A stretch of 64,000 nucleotides of DNA from Spizellomyces punctatus DAOM BR117. Taxonomy: Eukaryota. The stretch's first letter is position 1; every line of letters starts with the position of its first letter. Shown here in pieces: positions 5,888-64,000 of this stretch. The notes beneath the pieces were generated by a model. That model worked only from the letters and a program-made list of their open reading frames with translations, was not told the DNA's origin and made no database searches. The stretch lies in the NCBI GenBank assembly GCA_000182565.2, contig KQ257453.1. One strand, written 5' to 3'. The translations under genes and the position numbers were made by a program.

Positions 5888-7411
5888 TTTTTGGAGATGG
5901 TAGTAAAGGGATTGAAGAAGGAAGCACAGATATTTGACTTGAAAAAAAAAGGGAGGAAAGAAGCAGCCCTAAAAACCTCACTTTATCAGGATAAAGTATT
6001 GCTATAAAACCCAATCGTCCCCCCCCCCTCCATGGCAATTTGACAGCCCATTGAACAACACACCCTCAAAACAAACACACTCAAGACAAAACGAAAACTG
6101 CCAGACTAACCTGTCAAAGCACACACACAAGAGAACCAATCCGTACCCCAAAAACAGCTGAAAAGCCCCAACCCCAAAAAGCTTCAGAAAAAAACCTCAC
6201 ACTGGGCCCGCCAGTGTCTTACGAAAGTCAGACCCTCAAAAATGGGATAACTATAGATCTCAACAGCCCAAAAAGAAATCCCCGACCTTACAAGTGATTT
6301 TTCCTTGGATGTTTCCCTTGTGCGCAATTTGATTATGGTTTTTTTGAGTTTTTTGTTTTTGAATGATAATCAAAACGTCTTTCCAATTGGGATTGTTGTT
6401 GGAGGTACCTTAAGTTGTTGGTGGATATTTCTGTTGGTCGGCTACTTACTATAGATGGTGACGCTGCCGACACTTTGAGAGATCTATTAATAGATCCGTG
6501 GATAATGTTCCAGCCACTGAGCCAAGTTTGAGCGGGGAGCCATAGAGATTCAGACATGAAGGGCGAGTGTTCGCCAACTAGATAGACATCCGATTCGCCG
6601 AGTCAAGGATCTGACTATAGTGGACAGATGGTTCCAAGTACTTTTGCATATGCCATGCATTATTCATCTGATAAATCAAAGGTGGTGCATCAGGACACAA
6701 GGTCCAGTACAAGCTGTAGGGAAGTGATATGTTCCTCATCCTCGGGGAGATACACAAGGATTCATTCGTTCTTGTTGGTGTTTGCCTGAACGATCCACCC
6801 AATATTGATTCAATAATGAAGGCTCGAACTTGGCCCTTTGGCCCCTAGCATACCGGGAATACGCAAGAGAGGATTTTAATTTGGCGACATGCGCTCAGCG
6901 TTGTAGCAGACTCGATAATGTCTCAGATGCGTTCTGCGGAATGTGATATGTCACATTGGGGCCGCACATACTTTACAAGGAATCTACATTAGCCGAACCA
7001 AGGCGGTTTTTGGAGGGCATCTGTTGGACATGAACCATGTTCTAGAATAAAAATGGGACCCGAAAGTGCTAGTGTGTTGACAAGATCAAAAACCATTCAA
7101 CTTCCAGCAAGAGTCGGCTAGTTGATGGTCCATACAAGACTCCACATACGCCAATAGCATGTCTCAAAGTGTCGCCAATTCTTGACTATATCTGGGCAAG
7201 GTGTGTTTTTTCAATTGCAGCGCTTTATGTTGTGTCAAAAAGGAATATCCCAATCCATAGAATCAGTCCAACTGGCAAATGCTTGAATCCTTGAGGCCTC
7301 GTCAGTCCTTGGAGACGCGCATCTCCAGAAAACAATTTCCGTCCCAAAACCTCTCAAAAGTCTGCTTTTCCATCCCATGTTTTTAAAGCCTTTGAAGGGA
7401 CCAGAGTTTAC

Positions 7412-9213
7412 ATGTCCCACCCCTTCCTCCCATTCCCCTTCATCTGTCCCAATAGTTACATTGAAACCTTGCACACCTTTATCCAGACCCACAAGTGGTT
7501 ATCCGAGTTTTATGCCATCGCCTTCATAACCACCGACTACTGGAACACGGGACCAATACCTCCGCAATGGAAGATATTGGAATGGGAGAACGATGATACA
7601 TTATGCCGGGTTGCTAGTGAAGGTTTTATCAAGGTGAAGTGAGTATTATCGGGTCGGTGGTTTGGATCGTAATTGACGTATTGAATGTGTACAGGATGAG
7701 TGGCCAGAGAGCTTGAAACAGTTTGTGCTGGAGGCCAGTAGATTGGGAATGAAGCGGGATGCAAGGAATTTTGAAGATGTTGAATGTAAGTTGATGGCTG
7801 CTCATTGTTTCCGGTCCGGTTTAAATGACAGTTTCCAGTTGCAGACATATCTCCAAGGGTGAGGGCTCATATGCGATATAGATCAGCGGAGCAAAGTCGA
7901 ATTCCTTTGCTCACGTATCTGAGACTTTTCAGATTGCAGTTGGAATGAACACAAAGAAAGTTAAAGAGGTATGCCTGCCTATTACCAGCCCAGATTATGG
8001 TACTCAAGCACCCCCACCTGCTAGACAGGTCCGCTAGCCTCCATCATCAGAACGCTGTCGCAAACTCAGCATATATCGCATATTCTCGACCTTGGTGCTG
8101 GGCAAGGCTATCTCTCATCCGTCCTCGCCTACCAATACAACCTAAATGTGCTCGCCATTGATGGGTCGTCGTCACAAATAGCAGGAGGACGCCGTCGTGC
8201 AGAAAATATCAAAAAGAGGATTGGAGATGGTCAAGGCCGTTTGGTGTTCCTGGAGAGGAGTGTACAGGAAGAAGAGGATTTGGAGAGGTTCATGGGAGTG
8301 GGCACCAATTGCTTTGGGGAAGGACGGTGGGGCATATGTGGGTTGCGTAAGTTTGAACTCTATTGAAACACAATTGCTCAAGTTGGCTGGTCGTTGACTC
8401 TTGGTGGTCGGCCCCTAGATACATGCGGAGATCTCGCCTCAACAACAATACGAGGGTTCCTCACCAGCCGTGCGAGTGTCCTGGTAAGCACTTATCACTG
8501 CGTCCCTTTCTGTGCATAGGCACTAGATCTTACTGTGCTATCAAGGTGAATGTCGGATGCTGTTATAACAAACTTACGGAAAAAGGTCACAGTCAGTTTT
8601 TGTTCCCAACGTTCTTGTTCTGTACCTGATATTTCTTGCATCACTAGGGTTTCCAATGAGCCAACACTACAAGTCCCGTAACTGGACCCTCTCGGCCAAT
8701 CTTTTGATGGTGGCTTGGTACGTCTACTTCTAGCTTCTGCGTATCAATATTATATATTAAAGACACCCTAGCCAAGCACCCAGCCGGTGGACAACAACAA
8801 GTACTACCAAGATGTCTTTTAACAACCTCTACTATCGCGCTCTCCTCCAAGACATCCTCGTATCCAACAACTACCCTACGATAACATCTCTCAGATCTCT
8901 CCCGCAATCCGCATTTACGGATTTTGAAACGTACATCCGAACGGCACTCAACCGCCTCCAGCTTCCTATGCCTTCAACGCCCCTCCAAGTATACCTGGCA
9001 AAACATCAAAATGCCAGACGCCAAATTGCTGCACTGTGGACGTTGCGTGCTCTCATCGCGGATGTGGTGGAGTCCTTTATATTGATGGACAGATGGAGTT
9101 TTGGGAGGGAATTGGATGGTGTGAAGGTTTTTTTGGAGCCAGTTGTGGATCCTGTTGTAAGCCCAAGGAATATGGCGATCGTTTTTATCAATGAAAGAAA
9201 ACAGCAAGAGTGA
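7412..9213 (+). CDS. METTL25/RRNAD1-like SAM-dependent methyltransferase (multi-exon)
   Basis: LDLGAGQGYLS motif I (~8085), VLAIDGS, TCGDL, NVGCCYNKL and C-terminal VESFILMDRW..DPVVSPRNMAI, typical of this family. Confidence 0.8.
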
Positions 9214-54416: not shown

Positions 54417-55487
54417 TTAGTCACTTGCAGACATGTGGATGGAGCAAGCAGGGGACGGGAATTGTTCCGGCTTGGCGTCTGTATCGGGCTTTATGGCAGA
54501 CAGGCACACACCTCGTTTTTTCCCTGGTGTGACCTTCACAATGACCACATCATCAACATCTCCAGTTTCTTTGATCGCCAACCATTTCCTCGGCCGAGCT
54601 GCCGCCTTCCCGCGGGACACTCTGACAAATATCCCATTCTCATCCTTTCCCTGCTTCGCCTCCTCTGATGGAAGTTGCATGTCCTTTTTGCCTGGTGATA
54701 GTCGAACTTTTTCAAGCCTCGACGCCTCGCTCTCCAATGTCTTATGAGGGGTAGTCAAAAGATCAAGATCAGCGTTCAGATCCAGATCCGCCAGGACACT
54801 TGCCACCCTTGATCTCACAGGCGTCGCTAAAGCGTTGATGGCAAGGGAGGGTGTGCCACGTCTTGGCACTCTCGATGCTGTCTTGTGCCCTTTGAGTAGT
54901 CTTCCCGTAGGTTTCAAGGTACGAAAAGGTGTGCACGGTGCGGTGCTCGGGTGTTGGGGAAGAAGATTATCAAACGCCTCGTCGTCATACAGGAGCTTCT
55001 GCGCGGCTTTATCATCTGCAGGGAGCGTGTAAATCCGCGCAACTATGGGTCCACATTTTGTCTTTTTGACCGAGGTCATTGCACAGTCGTCTAATATGGT
55101 CTTCCTTTTGCGCGACATATGCCTTGCAGCAACCTGGACCCGCGCCGGAGTCTCGAACGCACGGTCGGTGTCCAAGCCTGTATCGTCTGAACGCAGCTCT
55201 GCGTCCTCACTTTGATAGAATACTTTCCCAAAAACGTGGACCCCATGGTTTCGTACCCAACCTTTATCCACCACAATTTCCTCTTTTTCCAAGTCAATTT
55301 CGTCGGCATCGTGGAACTCCTGTCCGTACTTCTCGTATATGCTTTCCCAAGCCATCTTCAAACGCAGCTGAGATTGCAAGCGCTGATGAGCCACATCGCC
55401 ATATTGGACTGGGGTCGAAGGACATATTGACTGAATAGAAGCCAGAGAAAAGAAACCTGAGAAAGTCGGTGTCGGTTCGCTTGCCAT
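54417..55487 (-). CDS. Scm3/HJURP-domain protein (CENP-A chaperone-like)
   Basis: RLQSQLRLKMAWESIYEKYGQEFHDADEIDLEKEEIVVDKGWVR matches the Scm3 CENP-A-binding domain consensus. Confidence 0.8.
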   Translation of the reverse strand: MASEPTPTFSGFFSLASIQSICPSTPVQYGDVAHQRLQSQLRLKMAWESIYEKYGQEFHDADEIDLEKEEIVVDKGWVRNHGVHVFGKVFYQSEDAELRSDDTGLDTDRAFETPARVQVAARHMSRKRKTILDDCAMTSVKKTKCGPIVARIYTLPADDKAAQKLLYDDEAFDNLLPQHPSTAPCTPFRTLKPTGRLLKGHKTASRVPRRGTPSLAINALATPVRSRVASVLADLDLNADLDLLTTPHKTLESEASRLEKVRLSPGKKDMQLPSEEAKQGKDENGIFVRVSRGKAAARPRKWLAIKETGDVDDVVIVKVTPGKKRGVCLSAIKPDTDAKPEQFPSPACSIHMSASD

Positions 55488-55978
55488 CTCCAACTGGCCA
55501 ATTCCAAATTGCTGACGCGGAAGGCAATTTGAGATGCAGTCACGTGTCTACATGCGTTTGTACGACATGCGCTTCAGCAGTCTACAACTAGTATCGAATA
55601 TATGATGGGACAGATAACGGGTAGACAGCAGAAACACAGCAGCGCATGCGTTAAACCAGGTTTGATGTCATGGCCACACCGCCGTAGCAATTGCTATGAA
55701 ATAGTGCATTGAATGAATGCAACCACAACGAACCCACAATGGAAGTAATTACAACTAAATTAAATTCAAACGGCTGTGTTAACCGCTGTGTGGTGTCCCA
55801 TCACATACTCGATAGGAGTTGTATGACAACCCTGAGCTTCAAACCTTGATACATGCAACGATGCGCTGCAGAATTCCAAAAGAATAATAGGGTAGTTCGT
55901 TTGCAAGGAGGAGGGTGTGATGTCGTGTATATTTAACAGTTGCCAGGGGAAAATGAATAAGCACGCTCAGGTTCTACT

Positions 55979-58633
55979 CTAACGGTAACGGTCCATGAAC
56001 TCCTGATGAAATTCCGAAATTCTTTGAATGAAATTTTCCATTTGATTTTCCGGAGGGAGGAAGGTGGATCGAAAGTGCCATGTACCCTCTTTTTGATGAA
56101 AACCAGATCCCGGTACGACGCACTAAGATGAATCAGTCATGAGCATGTGGCCCTCCTCTCATGGCACGGGTACCCGTAGTACATACCACTCCAGTTGCAT
56201 TAAGTAACTCCATGCAGTACATTACGTCTGGCTCTTGGCCTGCTGTCCTTGCGGCTTCAATTGCCTTTGTCGGTAATAGGATTTGTGGAAAAAGATACAT
56301 CGCGCCCTGGAGTTTGAAGAGTGTTATGGGATGGATGAATTAATCTTGCCAGAATACTCCACATACCTGTGCGGGCTGGCAACTCACTCCTTCCAGTCGA
56401 TTGAATGCATCAGCGAGACGGGATGCCCTACTTCTCAATGACTCTGCCCAAAATATTAGACATTGATCTTGATCATCGGTGCGTTAGCCTCCCCAGGACG
56501 CTTACCGTAAATGGAATCTGTTTCTTGTTTATACAAGTCGTAGGATGCATCGCCCTGGCGGGGAGGATTGACCATCAAATCCACCTGAGACGGCACCGAC
56601 GTTAGACGCCACAGTCATGCCGCGGAACCGGCCACATTCCTCACCATAAGCTGTCCTTGCGTAGGGGGGCACAGTGAAATGCTGGCAATCTTATAGAAGA
56701 GCTCTTTCACCTGAGGGTCAATCGAGGTGCATTCGAAGTAACCCCCTCGCCGACCGCATTCTCCTACCACGCCTTTTGACACGCTGTGGAAGGATATCAA
56801 CTCCACGCTTCCGTACGCAGGACCCATGCTACAGCAGTATTCGATAGTTATTGACGGACCGTCACCACTCGCTCCAACACGCCCACAATTCGCCACGTTT
56901 TTCCTTACCTTTTCAGTACTTTCTTAAAGGAGTGAAACGGAAAGTCCTGAGGGAGATAAATATTTTTCTGGTACACTTCGTCGGCAAGAAGTACAAGCTT
57001 TTCTCGATGACAGAAGTCAATAACCTACGAAAATTTTGTTTAGCATCTCCCAGCAAACGTCAATCCTGATAAGGAACTTACATCCCGCATGTTATCCACC
57101 GTCAGACATCCACCAGTTGGGTTTCCGGGATTAATCACACAAAGAGCCCGGACGTCAAGTCCTTCTTCTCGGGCAGCAGCAATCGATCTCCCAAGCTCTT
57201 CCACCTGATGCAGCATGAGGACCGATAAGTGGCGGACTTCCAGAGAATCGCACTGACATGTCCTTACCGACAAACCCCACGTATTTTCTTCATTCAGGTA
57301 ATATGGTACCGCATTACCCTTAAAAAGGGCAATCGATGCAGTGTATAATGGATATTGGGGTACTGGTATCATGATCTTTCGAAGATGATAATCTTTAAAG
57401 CAACCCAGGATACAGACATTTCAACAAGAGAACATACCCCAACTTGATTGTTCGCAATAAGGGTTTGCAAAACAGTTTGCACCCCAGGACTTGCCCTTTA
57501 AAGACAGTTATAAAATATTAACAGATTTTCGGATGGATGAGTGAGCAGGTGTGTGACAGGTACCCTGCAGTTAAAAATATATCGTTGGGGTCCGACGGGT
57601 ACCCATCACGCTCTGGTCATGAAACTTAGGTTAAGCAGGTATTTCGACCTGAAGTGAGGCGGCCACATAGCTGTCAACCTTCGATAAATTTTGCAACATT
57701 CTCTCTAACAAGAGGAATTCCTACGCAATATGCGTCAATATTACAAGCAGGTCAAGGAAGGAAGACTGCACCGTATTACCTTGAGAGTGACTGTAAGCAC
57801 CAACACTTCCGCCCATGGCTTGCAGGAGAGATTTGGCGCGTTCAATTGCATCCGTGGCAAACAATTGACGGGTAAGAGATATGTTCTTGTCATCCAGTAA
57901 CTCAGGGTACTCCACCAGAGAAGTAACCTACGTCACTGTCACTAAAGACGCTCTCCCGAATGTCAACGTTCATGAACCACACCTGCCGAAAAAAAGTGAT
58001 TGGTCGCTGCTCCAATTGTTGTGGATTACCAATGTTGCAGGATATGATACGCTCAAACGGTAAAGATCTTGGTTGTGCGGTCGCAAGTTGCTTATAGGAA
58101 TGACAGCAATGTTTTAGCAAACGTGACTTGAGAGAAGCAACCCGCTTCTCACTACCAACCTGACGTAGTACTTCGGCGCGAATGGCCAGTTCGCCACGGA
58201 CTGCATATTCACAATCGACAACCGCTTGATTGACTGTCGAGAGGTTCAAGACCTTTGCTCCTGTTGGGCCAAACCAATATATGCTCGGTTAGAATATAAA
58301 TTGCTGGGGACCAGTTGGACGTAAGTAGTGGAGGTTCCATTACGAACCAGCGATGCCACACCGTATCTATCGTTGCCGGAATTTCAGCCTACCTTTGTCC
58401 GCCCCAATCTTTGTAGAGGCCTGTCTGCTCTGAGTTCTAGGAACCGGATGCTGCAACATTTTGGCTTTCTTTCGAAGATGCAGGCTTAAAGAGACAGTCG
58501 ACAGGAGCGAACGTGGCATGAAAACACACCCTGGACAGAGGTGCTGCTGCGGATAACGGGAAACAAATGAGGAAGCCGATACAGATGGTGGACGGCAGAA
58601 AGTGTACAATTGCTGCTTTGGCAGTTGTTGCAT
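55979..58633 (-). CDS. ALT1: Alanine aminotransferase (PLP-dependent), multi-exon, with N-terminal extension
   Basis: [71 protein letters not shown]. Start approximate. Confidence 0.93.
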
Positions 58634-60601
58634 TGTATGGTTAAGAGACGGTTGTGGAGAAGTTTAGGTGATCTTGCAAATTGGTGTATTGTTGGCTATC
58701 GCTAGCGAATTGTGGCTTAGTAGAATTTGACGATCACGGAGTGGAAGGAAGGGAGACATATCAAGAAGTTAGACTGTTATGATATAATTGTGTATGTTGA
58801 CAACCGAGGCTAAAATGCACCTGCACACACAAACATCATGACACAGTTCCCATGGGTTACTTTACATGGGACATTTAAATGGACATTTGATTCATATTAT
58901 TCCATAGATCTGGAATTAATTTCAACCATGTTGGGTTAAGTGCACCTGTTAGGATTGGGTCACCCTTTGGGTGGATTACTCTATTAAGAGTTATTTGTTC
59001 TACTGTTCCTGTATCAGAGAGATGTTCCTCCATCAGCTTATATTGAGCAAATAGTAAGCATAGTATTATAGAATAAAAAATATAGGTTATTGAATACAGT
59101 ATATACCTCTAAGAAGCCATTAAAGAGGCTTGTAGCTATTATCCAGGGGCATTCAGACTCCTCTGATCTGCCTGATAAGTTACAAAGTTATTAAGTTATT
59201 CAGGTTACTATCCTGTTATATTTTGAATAAAATTGCAGCAACAGCCATCATATTGCTTAACACTTCACACAGCTAAGTAGGCTCACTCAGATATCTTTAG
59301 TTACATCAAGCCCCACTGCAAAGGCACCAGACCCCTGTAAAGAGGTACTATATAATAGAGGCAGGGACTTTGAGAACCTAGAGGTACAACTTAGCTTAGC
59401 TGATAATGGGCTTAGTGTAGTGACATGAGATGCCTAGGGATGTCATGGACTAGTCAGATGGGGGCACATGGATGTTTATTTTGGTTTTTGAGATGGGAAA
59501 TGTGGCTACCACAACCAAGAAAAGGGGTGCAGTGCCCACAATTATTGCAACTTAGACCTTTTTTAGCATATTTCATACAACCCATGCAGGAACTTGGCTG
59601 TCACCTAATTGGAAAGTATCAGTATTGCCACCAACAAATCAGTTGCAGTGATGCTGTAGTTTTAACATAGGAATTTATCCAAGAATTATATATATAAGAG
59701 TATATTCAACAGAGCAAAGTTGTGAGGTAGAAGCCATAGCAACACTAAATCCCCATAACCAGCTTCCCAACCCTAATCTTAGGTTCACAGGAACCCAACA
59801 GAGCACTTCAATGGCCTGATCACCTGCATCAAAGCCTCTAAATCCTGCTCAGCTCACAATTAACTGAACCCCTTGCCTCTTGCCCCTCAACTCACTACCA
59901 AAAGCCAAAAAAAAAGGATTTGGAGACCATGGTTCCTAGTATGGCCACCCACATCACCTGCTAGGAGATCCAAGTCATCATCACCATAGTCATCCACTTA
60001 AAATCTGTTACATTAGTGCAGTTATAATAAGCTATACAATACCTTGAGTATAGTCCTTGTTATTAGAGGTTGTAGGGACCAGCATCTATGGTAGTCCTCC
60101 AGACTCATGTGCATCCATCCATTGCTGTAATTTGTAGCCTTGTATTAATTCCTCTATAATTGTATAATAACCTGTATATATTATATACTATATTTAATAT
60201 TTTATTTTGCTATATAGCAAAGCCAGTATATGAACTGTATCCTTGTATATGTTACAGTATCAGAATTTACATAAATGACATATGTGCCCTGCAAATCCTG
60301 GTTCACTCCCAACTAATATTTTCTACTAGTTTCCCCCACAACTTCTGTGGTTAAAAATATGACCAGCTTCCCCCACCTCTGGCACCCTCCTTTAGTAACC
60401 CTGCCTGGGACCTATTCTTAATCTGTTAAATCAGGTGCCTAAGAGAGGCTTCTCTTGATTGCATGAAGCTTCAACTGATACTTTAAGTTCCCTCCATTAC
60501 TATACCATCCAGTGCTTTGGAGCTGACTTCTGATTAATATTGAACAAGTCTCAAAGCAGAAGTCCCTTGGCATAATCATCAATGCTGGTTGGAAGACTTC
60601 A

Positions 60602-61044
60602 TGTAACAGATTCTTCTGTTAGTTACTTTGTCTTTAGTTAGTCAGTCAGTAGTATCAGTAGTGTAGTAGTTTGGACTTAGAGATTTTCAGTGCAAGTCCA
60701 TTAGTCTTAAAATGGCAGGCACATGTCTCTGAAACAAATGTTAGTAAGGAGGCAGGTCTAAAGGTTGATTTACCTAAATTAGGCAAGTCATACTCCTGAA
60801 AGGAAAATGTGAGTCAGAGACACATGTCTGAAACAAATTCCCCTTACTGAGCTGCAGAAAATAATTTTTGCTGCAAAGATAAGGATGATACATTGTGACT
60901 CAGCAGTTTAGAAGTCTTTTCATTGGTTAGAGATAAAACTGAAGCCTTGGCATTTTTGTCTATAAAAAGGGAGTGTTCCCACACCCCCCCTCTAATAGAA
61001 TAACCAAGTTTTCCCCAAGTCTTCCTAGTCTTCTTGTCCCTGCT
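60602..61044 (+). mobile_element. LTR (solo or 5' LTR) of a related Gypsy family, cut about 11 bp before its end by the next element
   Basis: Begins TGTAACAGATTCTTCTGTTAGT (cf. TGTGACAGAATTCTTCTGTCAGT of the neighbouring LTR); shares TTTGTCTATAAAAAG TATA region and GTCTTCTTGTCCCTGCT U5 end; no PPT upstream. Confidence 0.75.
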
Positions 61045-61534
61045 TGTAACAGGCTAGCAGGGACAAGAAGACAACAGAAAACTAGGGAAGACTTGGTTAC
61101 TACTTGTTATTTTCCTTTGAGGGGCCTCAGAGAGGTCCTCTTTTTATAGACAAAGGGGCTGACAAATGCTATATCCTAACTACCCAATCAGATCTCACCC
61201 ACATCATCCTAAACTATTTGTCAGCCTATTGCACCATTTGCAACCAATCAGATCTTGTACATGTCATCCTAAACTATTTGTCAGCCTATTGCACCATTTA
61301 TAGCCAATCACAAGTGAGACAAGTCATCCTAAATACACTGTGCCACTTGATTGAAAGGGGCAGATGCTAGTGTGTCAGGATACTCATCTAATTTAGCCAG
61401 AAATGGCTAAATCTGCTTATTTATCTAATTCTGGTCAAATGAATGCTGACACCATCAGCAAAGTCATGTGACCACTAGTTTGGAACCACATCTAACCAGT
61501 ATAACCATAGCACTGACAGAAGAATTCTGTCACA
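61045..61534 (-). mobile_element. 3' LTR (490 bp) of the Ty3/Gypsy element
   Basis: On the minus strand TGTGACAG...CTGTTACA termini, preceded by PPT AAAGTGGGGGAG (61535-61546); contains TATA and 60-bp repeats. Confidence 0.88.
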
Positions 61535-61550
61535 CTCCCCCACTTTAAGA

Positions 61551-64000
61551 TTAAGCTCCCTTCTGGGCTAGGAACTCCTTCAAGATTTCTCTGCCATGGG
61601 GTAGGAGGTTTTCTTCTGGTTCCCAGGTGTTCTGAGAGGAGGGATAGCCTTTCCACTTGATGAGGTAGAGATTCTTCTTCCTTCTGGTCTTGTGGTCAAG
61701 AATCTTCTCAACTTCCCAAAACTCTTATCCTTGCTGGATAATTGGCTCAGGCTCAGGGGGTACTGGTCTGGTAGGGAAGTCCTCTGTGGGGTCCAAGTAA
61801 GGCTTGAGGAGTCTCACATGGAACACTGGATGAATCTTCATGGTGCTGGGGAGCTCCAGGGTGTAATTCTGAAATTCATCCTTGGCCTTGATTCTGTAAG
61901 GTCCAAGCCAGGGGTGAAGAAGTTTCTGGGCTGGCCTCTGGGCTTCTTCTTCTGGGGTGATACCTTCTCTAGATAGCCAAACTTTGGAGCCTAAGGGGTA
62001 GCTTGGGGCCTTGCTGAGAGACTTGTTGGCTTGCTGAACTTGTCTTTCTTGGGCCAGTATCATGTTATCCTTGGCTACTTGAAGCAGTTGCTGAATATAC
62101 TGGTGGAAGTCTGTTGCTTCAGGATCATTGCTTTCTCCTGGTGGTGTTGCTGGGGTCCTGGGATGCTGGCCATTCTCCAAGTAGAATGGGGTAAAGCCTG
62201 TGGTTTCTGAGATACTGTTGTTGTAGGCAAACTCAGCAAAGGGTACAAGATCTTCCCAATTCTTCATGTTGTACTGCAGGAAAGCTCTCAGGTAGATCTT
62301 CAAAGTCTTGATGGTTCTCTCTGCCTGTCCATTGGTCTGCTGGTGCCTTGCAGTGGCTAGGAGGGTGTTGCAGCCTAAGAGTTGCATCAAGTTGGACCAG
62401 AATGAACTGGTGAACTTGGTGTCTCTATCAGATACAATCACTTCTGGGAGGCCATGGTGCTTGAAGATGTGCTTCAAGAAGAGCAGGGCCAGGTCCTTGG
62501 CTGAGGCTCTGGTGGTGGTAGGGATGAAGTGGCCTCTCTTTGACAATCTGTCAACAATGACAAAGATGGCATTGTGATCAGAGGAAGTCACAGGTAGGTC
62601 AGGGATCAGGTCAATGGAAATCTGGCTCCATCTGGTCTTAGGTACTGGGAGGGGCTGCAGCAAGCCTGCTGGTGGTTGCTGACTAGGTTTGCTTCTCTGG
62701 CAGGAATCACAAGACTTGACATACTTCTTAATGTCCTTGTACATCCTTGGCCAGTAGTAATGCCTTGCTAGGGCATCATGGGTCTTGGTGATGCCAAAGT
62801 GTCCAGCATACTGAGTGTCATGGGTTTCTTGGAGTAGGCTCAACCTTAGGTCTGGGTCACTAGGAACAAAAATCCTGTCCTGGAAATAGAGTAACCCATC
62901 TTGATGGCTGAGGTATTTGAGCCTTTGTTGCTGGTCTTCTGGTCTCCTGGGGTCATCCAAAGTTTGGATGAGCTCTTGAAGTTCTGGGTCTTCTGTGGTA
63001 CTGGTCTTCAATCTCTCTTGAAGGGTGCTGGTGGTGTGGGTCACAGCATTCAACTCTGCTGTCACCAAGGCCTTGCACTTGATGCATCTTGGGGCCAGGT
63101 CTGGTCTTCTAGACAGGATGTCTGCCACTGTGTGGAGTCTTCCTGGGCCATAGCCAATCTCAAAGTCAAAAGATTGGAAATTCATGACCCATCTGGCTTG
63201 TCTTCTGGTCAAGAAGGGCTGGTTCTGTAGCCACTTGAGGGACTGGTGGTCTGAGATAACTTTGAAGGGGGTTCCTTCCAGGTAGGGCCTCCAAACTCTG
63301 AGGGCATCATGGATGGCTAACAGCTCTTGTTCTCTGGTGTCATATCTGGTCTCTGCTGGAGCCATCTTCCTGGAGTGGTAGGCAACTGGTCTCATGCCTT
63401 TCCCATCATCCTGTCCAAGCCATGCTCCAACTGCATAGCCTGAGGCATCAGGGAAGACAGTGGTAGGCAAGGCTGGGTCAAAGGGTCTGAGTACAGGGGC
63501 TTTGGTGACCATATCCTTCAGCTGCTGAAAAGCTTTCTCCTGAGGTTCAGACCAGGTCCAGGGCTTGTCATTTCTCAACAGGTCTGTCAATGGTGCAGCT
63601 TGCTCTGCCAGGTCCTTCAGAAAGCTATGGAAGTAGTTCACCAGGCCCATGAACTGTCTGACTTCAGTGATGCTCTGAGGGGTGGGCCATTCTTGAACAG
63701 TCTGCACTTTCTTGGGGTCAAGCCTGACTCCTTCATGTGAGACTACATGGCCAAGAAACTCTACTTCTTGCTTGAAGAACTGGCACTTGCTGGGGTTGGC
63801 ATACAGCTTGTTCTGCCTGAGGGCTTGCAGAACCTGCTTGAGGTGGTCCAGGTGATCTTCTGGGGTCTTGGAGTAGATGAGGATGTCATCTAGGTAGACA
63901 ATAACAAAGATGTCCAAGAAGGGTCTAAGGACATCATTCATCAAAGTCATGAAAGTGGCTGGGGCATTGGTCATTCCAAAGGACCTGACCAGGAACTCAA
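61551..64000 (-). CDS. pol: Gypsy pol (RT, RNase H, integrase, chromodomain) with one in-frame TAA at 61725-61727
   Basis: [55 protein letters not shown] triad; WLGPYRI; after the stop [28 protein letters not shown]. Confidence 0.93.

Follow-up and report, generated by a model that had tools for sequence, protein, structure and literature searches.

Why should a block of more than 5 kb, directly beside CpG-normal genes, contain not a single CpG dinucleotide? The question is raised by the right end of a 64,000-nt stretch of contig KQ257453.1 (GCA_000182565.2) from the chytrid Spizellomyces punctatus DAOM BR117; the whole of this stretch is called the window below. Positions 58807 to 64000 (the domain) hold a nest of transposon DNA. 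A Ty3/gypsy chromovirus is present in it once, and another 2.2 kb consist of unique DNA and of non-coding relics of repeats. The answer that we favour, and in which we have moderate confidence, is that CpG-directed, methylation-coupled C-to-T mutation has acted on transposon DNA over the long term and that a CpG-less chromovirus lineage has survived it.

The domain (5194 nt, G+C content 44.3%) has a CpG count of 0, where base composition predicts 254, or 226 if the ratio of observed to expected CpG (CpG o/e) of the host side is applied. The 95% upper bound for its CpG o/e is 0.012. The host side (1-58806) carries 3056 CpG (o/e 0.89), the final one at 58805. The CpG-free gap at the domain measures 5195 nt, compared with a maximum of 164 nt elsewhere in the window. 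GpC is present in the domain in 236 copies (o/e 0.93). The missing CpG is accompanied by an excess of TpG and CpA (o/e 1.25 and 1.36 in the domain, 1.27 and 1.47 in its pol part, and 1.17 and 1.13 in the host), as expected of methylation-driven decay. No similarity was found between the domain and the rest of the window.

The coding part of the domain is a pol gene on the minus strand, whose frame (61725-63998) is open for 757 codons. Pfam matches to RVT_1 (81.5 bits), RT_RNaseH (111.7 bits), Integrase_H2C2 (87.9 bits), and SH3_Tf2-1 (46.1 bits) lie in one frame and in that order; the integrase core, rve, scored 24.2 bits, under the Pfam cut-off of 32.6. The element is a chromovirus of the Ty3/gypsy type (Metaviridae) because of this order of pol domains, the chromodomain, a purine-rich run, and a long terminal repeat (LTR) with inverted termini. 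The purine-rich run, AAAGTGGGGGAG, is probably the polypurine tract. The window ends at 64000, and the gag gene, the protease, and the 5′ LTR of the chromovirus lie beyond it, as do its primer-binding site and target-site duplication. These results agree with the original prediction for this locus, which had described abundant CpG up to 58805 and none from there to the window's end, a pol rich in GpC, and a near-intact retrotransposon open reading frame (ORF) that stays open for about 750 codons with AGA/AGG for Arg; the CpG o/e, when computed, was indeed near zero (<0.012), and the pol domains stand in order with one in-frame stop.

How pol can be read without CpG is seen in its codons. All 44 of its Arg codons are AGR (AGA/AGG); in four host ORFs, 62-82% of the Arg codons are CGN. 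None of the 178 four-fold degenerate codons for Ser, Pro, Thr, and Ala is TCG, CCG, ACG, or GCG. No CpG spans a codon boundary, where about 70 would be expected from the frequencies of third-base C (35%) and first-base G (27%). Before codons that do not start with G, the third base is C in 135 of 232 four-fold codons and in 110 of 137 NNY codons (Y = C or T), while before codons that start with G it is C in 0 of 82 and 0 of 43, respectively. The protein itself is conserved. In a comparison with 11 relatives, 16 of 18 conserved Arg columns kept Arg, none turned into Cys, Trp, His, or Gln, and the amino-acid composition of pol is ordinary. CGN codons cannot become AGR without a transversion, and their deamination would change the amino acid; the recoding therefore reflects long CpG loss together with purifying selection, and not the survivor of a single burst. 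The concern that deamination would wreck the ORF by turning CGA into TGA is inapplicable, there being no CGN codon left in pol.

The window was compared with four sets of sequences: X3, the contigs of an independent run, and X9, X10, and X11, raw short-read data from three more runs, made in a later year. The read comparison took in copies at least 85% like the window, and the 40 best-supported of 548 variants between window and reads were inspected. The word depth in X3 is 1.2-3.1 for unique DNA, 18-31 for pol, and 50 for the LTR, which suggests about 8-14 copies of the chromovirus family. Compared with the window, two collapsed X3 contigs of the family have 3 changes in 671 positions (61522-62192) and 11 in 1517 positions (62290-63806), less than 1% in each. 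None of these 14 differences, over 2188 nt in all, creates a CpG, and neither does any of the 20 best-supported variants in the LTR and pol from the three independent short-read runs. In the comparison of family copies that had been proposed along with the original prediction, the family contigs in X3 thus proved to be CpG-free, which supports the conclusion that the lineage itself, and not only the window copy, is CpG-free. With near-identical copies, the family still looks mobile, and would presumably be so at present.

The stop codon TAA that ends the pol frame is private to the window copy. At 61727, 438 of 447 reads (53 of 53 in X9, 255 of 260 in X10, and 130 of 134 in X11) have C and not A, giving GAA (Glu) on the minus strand, as does the X3 contig. 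Elsewhere in the genome the pol frame continues into the chromodomain. The TAA is not a CpG product. The limits of the LTR were drawn where many reads of other copies diverge, before 61045 and behind 61534 (X3, X10, X11), and the LTR is covered about twice as deeply as the internal part.

Traces of CpG loss in the host are seen within the nest. At 61256/7 and 63671/2, the window has the doublet TG where other copies of the chromovirus have CA. The second of these sites reads AGC\ATC in the window and AGT\GTC in the other copies (\ = codon boundary); this implies an ancestral C\G that decayed on opposite strands. A 60-nt tandem repeat in the LTR (about 61184-61363, about 2.2 units) bears similar marks, with 9 sites differing between units 1 and 2, of which 4 form two CA/TG doublets. 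The doublets show that CpGs arise in this family and are subsequently lost on either strand.

Another case is a relic of a different repeat at 59730-59975. Of its 15 tabulated best-supported differences from the reads, 4 are CpG in most reads and CpA or TpG in the window: 59831 and 59851 (CpA in the window) and 59930 and 59942 (TpG in the window). The loose-end consensus of the other copies of this repeat contains several CpGs, and in an alignment made by eye, not computed, four of these, at further sites, probably face TpG or CpA in the window. These differences indicate that, in this relic, CpG decays in place, at the DNA level and after insertion. The 5′ neighbours of the lost CpGs are A, C, and T. 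The TpCpG bias given for repeats of Pucciniomycotina in PMC4014442 was not seen as a restriction at the lost relic CpGs, and no CpG of any context is left. A duplication trigger could be examined at this locus only: the repeat of 59730-59975, which outnumbers the chromovirus, mostly keeps CpG, and the unique DNA at 58807-59415 has none.

The absence of CpG is not found in most relatives of the element. For pol, 5409 relatives were found, the top one (P0001) being 66% identical; the closest named relatives are from a charophyte alga, not from fungi. In a metagenome scan, at least 591 stretches were matched, of which at least 586 encode a pol relative, and the best 80 were kept. Among these best 80 of at least 586 loci, the median CpG o/e is 0.78, and 79 range from 0.20 to 1.30. 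Six loci from a viral collection have a CpG o/e of 0.70-1.23. Of the 86 kept loci (80 metagenome and 6 viral-collection), 85 thus lie within 0.20-1.30. The exception, L036, is a metagenome contig of 6870 nt (G+C content 47.9%) with 1 CpG. It carries a chromovirus in full: gag and, in one open frame of 1391 aa, protease, reverse transcriptase, RNase H, integrase, and chromodomain. All 48 of its Arg codons are AGR, and it has 0 CpG at codon boundaries where about 111 are expected. L036 is only 39% identical to the window pol, and relatives at 47-51% identity have normal CpG; therefore, the CpG-less state occurs in at least two families and is no trait of a clade. On these comparisons, it is host- or lineage-specific. 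An exact 126-nt repeat is present at both ends of L036, which points to the collapse of an LTR or to circularity of the assembly.

How might such a state have come about? In the explanation that we favour, transposon DNA of the host would be under CpG-directed C-to-T pressure, the likeliest source of which would be CpG methylation and then deamination. The relics of the nest would have shed their CpGs in place, leaving TpG on one strand and CpA on the other. The chromovirus lineage, long under this pressure, would have lost its CpGs to the last one, its proteins being preserved by purifying selection. The end state would be one with AGR as the only Arg codons, with NCG codons gone, and with no C-ending codon ahead of a G-starting codon. 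An element without CpG would offer nothing on which CpG methylation or CpG decay could act. For Spizellomyces, 5-methylcytosine has been reported from transposons only (PMC12695648), and its transposable elements carry trimethylated histone H3 lysine 9 and lysine 27 (H3K9me3 and H3K27me3; 10.1101/2025.03.17.643675). Methylation as the cause, the current mobility of the family, and the heterochromatic nature of the nest are what we infer.

Several observations speak against this explanation or limit it. Where C is avoided ahead of G codons, the substitute third base is not preferentially T (46 A, 26 T, 10 G; Fisher p 0.28); the coding sequence therefore shows an old equilibrium and no fresh C-to-T footprint. 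Spontaneous decay of methylated CpG reaches an equilibrium o/e of about 0.2 in mammals; the residue here, below 0.012, points to a process beyond spontaneous deamination, or to selection against CpG. DNA without CpG cannot itself display CpG methylation, and no DNA methyltransferase was found among the other 55 window ORFs scanned with Pfam, a search that concerns the window only. The higher-copy repeat of 59730-59975 retains CpG in most of its copies, and CpG loss is therefore not universal for the repeats of this genome. CpG-bearing minor or older copies of the chromovirus family may exist outside the 40 inspected variants and the copies at least 85% like the window. Lastly, no listed contig bridges the junction at 58806.

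Another source of the pressure would be a dedicated, repeat-triggered, CpG-specific hypermutation resembling repeat-induced point mutation (RIP). A deaminating enzyme like a cytosine methyltransferase, for example, might clear duplicated DNA of its CpGs in bursts, and the chromovirus would have survived because it no longer contains any target. That CpG loss is so complete, both here and in L036, suits an efficient enzyme more than slow spontaneous decay; the CpG-to-TpG/CpA differences between copies occur whatever the strand and the 5′ neighbour; and a counterpart has been described in the CpG-biased, RIP-like mutation of repeats in Basidiomycota (PMC4014442). We nevertheless consider this explanation rather unlikely. 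A sweep triggered by duplication would not be expected to spare CpG in the higher-copy repeat, unless that repeat is too short or too young, and the CpG-free unique DNA at 58807-59415 would require leakage from repeats. The uniform AGR codons together with the retained Arg residues look like long, selection-filtered adaptation and not like survival of a burst, and the recoded third positions are without T bias. One of two alternatives in the original prediction was a hypermutation system aimed at CpG in a sharply bounded heterochromatic, possibly pericentromeric, domain, of which the window shows 5.2 kb before it ends. The first half of this alternative, mutation targeted to CpG, is partly supported by the TpG/CpA sites of the relic and by the CA/TG doublets; its second half, a dedicated system, is indistinguishable here from ordinary decay of methylated CpG. 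The other alternative was a lineage that had evolved to be CpG-free in order to evade methylation silencing. That the lineage is CpG-free is supported by the family contigs, the Arg codons, and the lack of C\G boundaries; evasion as its purpose is not supported over mutation pressure with purifying selection, which explains the same data equally well.

CpG might also be avoided by the element for reasons of its own, either through a factor that senses CpG at the RNA or cDNA stage or through a sojourn in an earlier, CpG-poor host followed by horizontal transfer, the rest of the domain being relics of such elements. The vertebrate RNA sensor ZAP suppresses CpG in retroviruses and RNA viruses; we know of no CpG-sensing RNA factor in fungi. 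Such avoidance is in keeping with CpG-free family contigs, with a coding sequence at an old equilibrium, with the nearly complete absence of CpG from a complete chromovirus as distant as L036, and with nearest named pol relatives that are charophyte and not fungal. It is made improbable by the relic at 59730-59975, which lost its CpGs after insertion and belongs to a family whose other copies bear CpG, and by the TG/CA doublets between near-identical copies, which indicate a decay that continues in the host.

An artefact, either an assembly chimera or miscalling of CpG at methylated sites in a long-read assembly, seems to us very improbable. The unbridged junction could be taken in its favour, since the listed X3 contigs do not cross 58806 and X3 depth is 0 over 57601-59200; depth is also low over 58801-59600 in all three short-read sets. 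Yet raw reads of X9-X11 cover every bin across 58806, and no joint, break, or pile of loose ends was seen at 58806 among the loose ends listed. A check for a chimera, which the original prediction had called for, is therefore passed weakly: the junction is covered by reads and has no listed break, but no listed contig spans it. Within the element, the window sequence is borne out by short reads and contigs, whose fixed differences from it create no CpG. Miscalls could not yield AGR as the only Arg codons along with intact conserved residues, and in reads of the same organism the family has the depth of a multi-copy element.

The remaining features of the nest and its edge are listed in Table 1.

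Table 1. Features of the CpG-free domain and of its left edge (window coordinates)
Feature	Position	Strand	Remarks
Aminotransferase (ALT-like) gene, 5′ end and short promoter	58001..58806	-	Last CpG-bearing DNA; euchromatic side of the boundary
Unique AT-rich DNA (G+C content 34-41%)	58807..59415		0 CpG; no recognisable coding sequence or repeat; no ORF >84 aa
Low-copy repeat relic, CpG-free	59416..59729		Match to X3 record 4
Decayed fragment of another, high-copy repeat	59730..59975		Other copies keep CpG
Unique CpG-free DNA within the nest	59976..60609		X3 record 5
Low-copy repeat relic	60610..61044		X3 record 6: 34 other letters, 9 gaps
3′ LTR, 490 nt	61045..61534	-	Plus strand ends TGTAACAG...CTGTCACA; TG...CA, inverted termini; 0 CpG
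Polypurine tract (putative) and spacer, between pol stop and LTR	61535..61550	-	Purine-rich run AAAGTGGGGGAG before LTR start TGTGACAG
Chromodomain, integrase C-terminus	61551..61724	-	Pfam Chromo, E 4.1e-21, 75.1 bits; in frame behind one stop
In-frame TAA severing the chromodomain	61725..61727	-	This copy only
pol of Ty3/gypsy chromovirus: C-terminal reverse transcriptase, RNase H, integrase zinc finger and core, SH3_Tf2-1	61728..64000	-	Runs off the window end

In the part of the nest outside the chromovirus (58807-61044), there was no ORF of more than 94 aa, no tRNA was found, and no Rfam match was above threshold. The unique DNA at 58807-59415 has low but non-zero depth in X9-X11 and no X3 contig. 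A 522-nt X3 contig (record 4, depth 2.6) aligns with 59416-59828, from which it differs in 40 letters and 1 gap; an approximately 90% copy of this segment is therefore present elsewhere in the genome. The relic at 60610-61044 likewise has a copy of roughly 90% elsewhere. X3 record 5 (841 nt, depth 2.8) is identical to 59799-60639, with 0 other letters. Over 59730-59975, the depth in X3 is 70-104, compared with 1-3 in unique DNA, and in X10 it reaches about 400 per orientation; in reads, this repeat outnumbers the chromovirus.

Next to the LTR, the 44 nt at 61001-61044 repeat LTR positions 61056-61099 in inverted orientation, forming an 80% complementary palindrome across the LTR end (61001-61099). 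This may be the remnant of a head-to-head arrangement of LTRs. A structured RNA at 61001-61099 was considered and rejected, the matches to Rfam families resembling miRNA precursors being below threshold (best 42.8 bits, gathering threshold 117).

On the other side of the boundary, the CpG-free domain begins about 150 nt upstream of the aminotransferase gene, in which an exon ORF (57040-57420) matches Pfam Aminotran_1_2. The number of CpG per 200 nt is 9-13, drops to 4-5 within about 58500-58800, and is then 0. X9, X10, and X11 are chromatin immunoprecipitation sets with no antibody named and no input control. In X9 and X11, bins 58001-58800 have peaks of the promoter type, and the signal is about ten-fold lower in bin 58801-59200; X10 shows a gene-body-type pattern. 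Where the domain consists of unique DNA, the signal is low in all three sets. Over multi-copy parts, the depth of these three sets is a mixture of copy number and enrichment, and no conclusion on heterochromatin was drawn from it. We read the sharp edge at 58806 as a nest that abuts the short, active promoter of the aminotransferase gene, which would be an expressed gene.

The other 55 ORFs of the window were scanned with Pfam, and those with a family are ordinary genes; no second transposon was found among them. The families are DEAH helicase, Cdc14-type phosphatase, phospholipase D, Scm3, RanBP zinc-finger, MRP-L20, and aminotransferase. A 777-aa ORF with Sel1 repeats has its best relatives in Phlyctochytrium planicorne (62%), Fimicolochytrium jonesii (62%), Cladochytrium (54%), and Podochytrium (53%); after these chytrids, the next relatives are in other early-diverging fungi, which puts the host in Chytridiomycota. 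Three window proteins had no exact match in the protein collection searched. On the host side, CpG o/e falls to its minimum, 0.60, at 6001-8000; of the four longest CpG-free gaps outside the domain, three (164, 144, and 118 nt) lie in this interval. The ORF with the domain of Scm3, a CENP-A chaperone, is at 54417-55547 on the minus strand, 3 kb from the nest; with regard to the pericentromeric location considered in the original prediction, this proximity is coincidental and uninformative on the position of the centromere. Upstream of the Scm3-like gene, in its promoter region (55583-55772), near-fixed differences between window and reads were observed at 55677 (C>T), 55746 (T>A), and 55772 (G>C); some reads have a 2-nt deletion at 55642, and there are loose ends at 55583 and 55719. 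An error in the local assembly or a polymorphism between strains may account for this cluster.

How does this domain compare with known systems? RIP of the Neurospora type was tried as an explanation and rejected. Its signature is a (CpA+TpG)/(ApC+GpT) index of at most about 1.03 and a high TpA/ApT. In three parts of the domain, the index is 1.34, 1.46, and 1.69, above that of the host (1.27), TpA/ApT is 1.02, 0.88, and 0.64, and the ORF is intact. The domain resembles the product of Neurospora RIP in transition mutation of fungal transposon DNA and in compositionally distinct, sharp-edged blocks; Neurospora RIP, however, depletes CpA and enriches TpA. With CpG suppression of the ZAP type it shares a reverse-transcribing element that keeps its proteins and avoids CpG synonymously, but that suppression is partial and acts on RNA, whereas here non-coding relics have also lost CpG at the DNA level. 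The decay of methylated CpG known from vertebrates, plants, and many fungi (PMC12695648) is similar in its TpG/CpA products and in a loss limited to transposons beside CpG-normal genes. It differs in the residue, as discussed above, and in the elements themselves: young active elements there are usually CpG-rich and decay after insertion, whereas here the active-looking lineage itself is CpG-free. The hypermutation of Basidiomycota, as presented in PMC4014442, is similar in CpG-biased C-to-T changes between repeat copies, mainly of transposons, and is unlike the CpA bias of Neurospora. In contrast to that type, the present case is in a chytrid, the depletion is total and not partial, there is no restriction to TCG, and one family has been recoded with its function kept and not inactivated.

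No description of CpG-free transposons in chytrids was found in the literature searched, and the available parts of two reviews of fungal methylation (PMC13297926, PMC7862722) do not mention them. What is new here is that the decay of CpG in transposons has been carried to completion in a lineage that is still coding-competent. The CpG depletion of methylated transposons is normally partial and normally marks dead copies. The family described here has intact conserved proteins, near-identical copies, and zero CpG beside CpG-normal genes, in a phylum whose control of transposons has barely been studied. Tentatively, chromovirus lineages may have become fully CpG-less while mobile, and so invisible to CpG methylation, as the end-point of an arms race that was apparently reached independently in at least two families, that of the window and that of L036. 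If the family is active, it would be a case in nature of a transposon that has rid itself of the sites on which CpG methylation acts, and it would provide a gauge for the strength of CpG-directed mutation in chytrids. CpG-free blocks would then serve as a cheap, sequence-only marker of the silenced compartment in such genomes.

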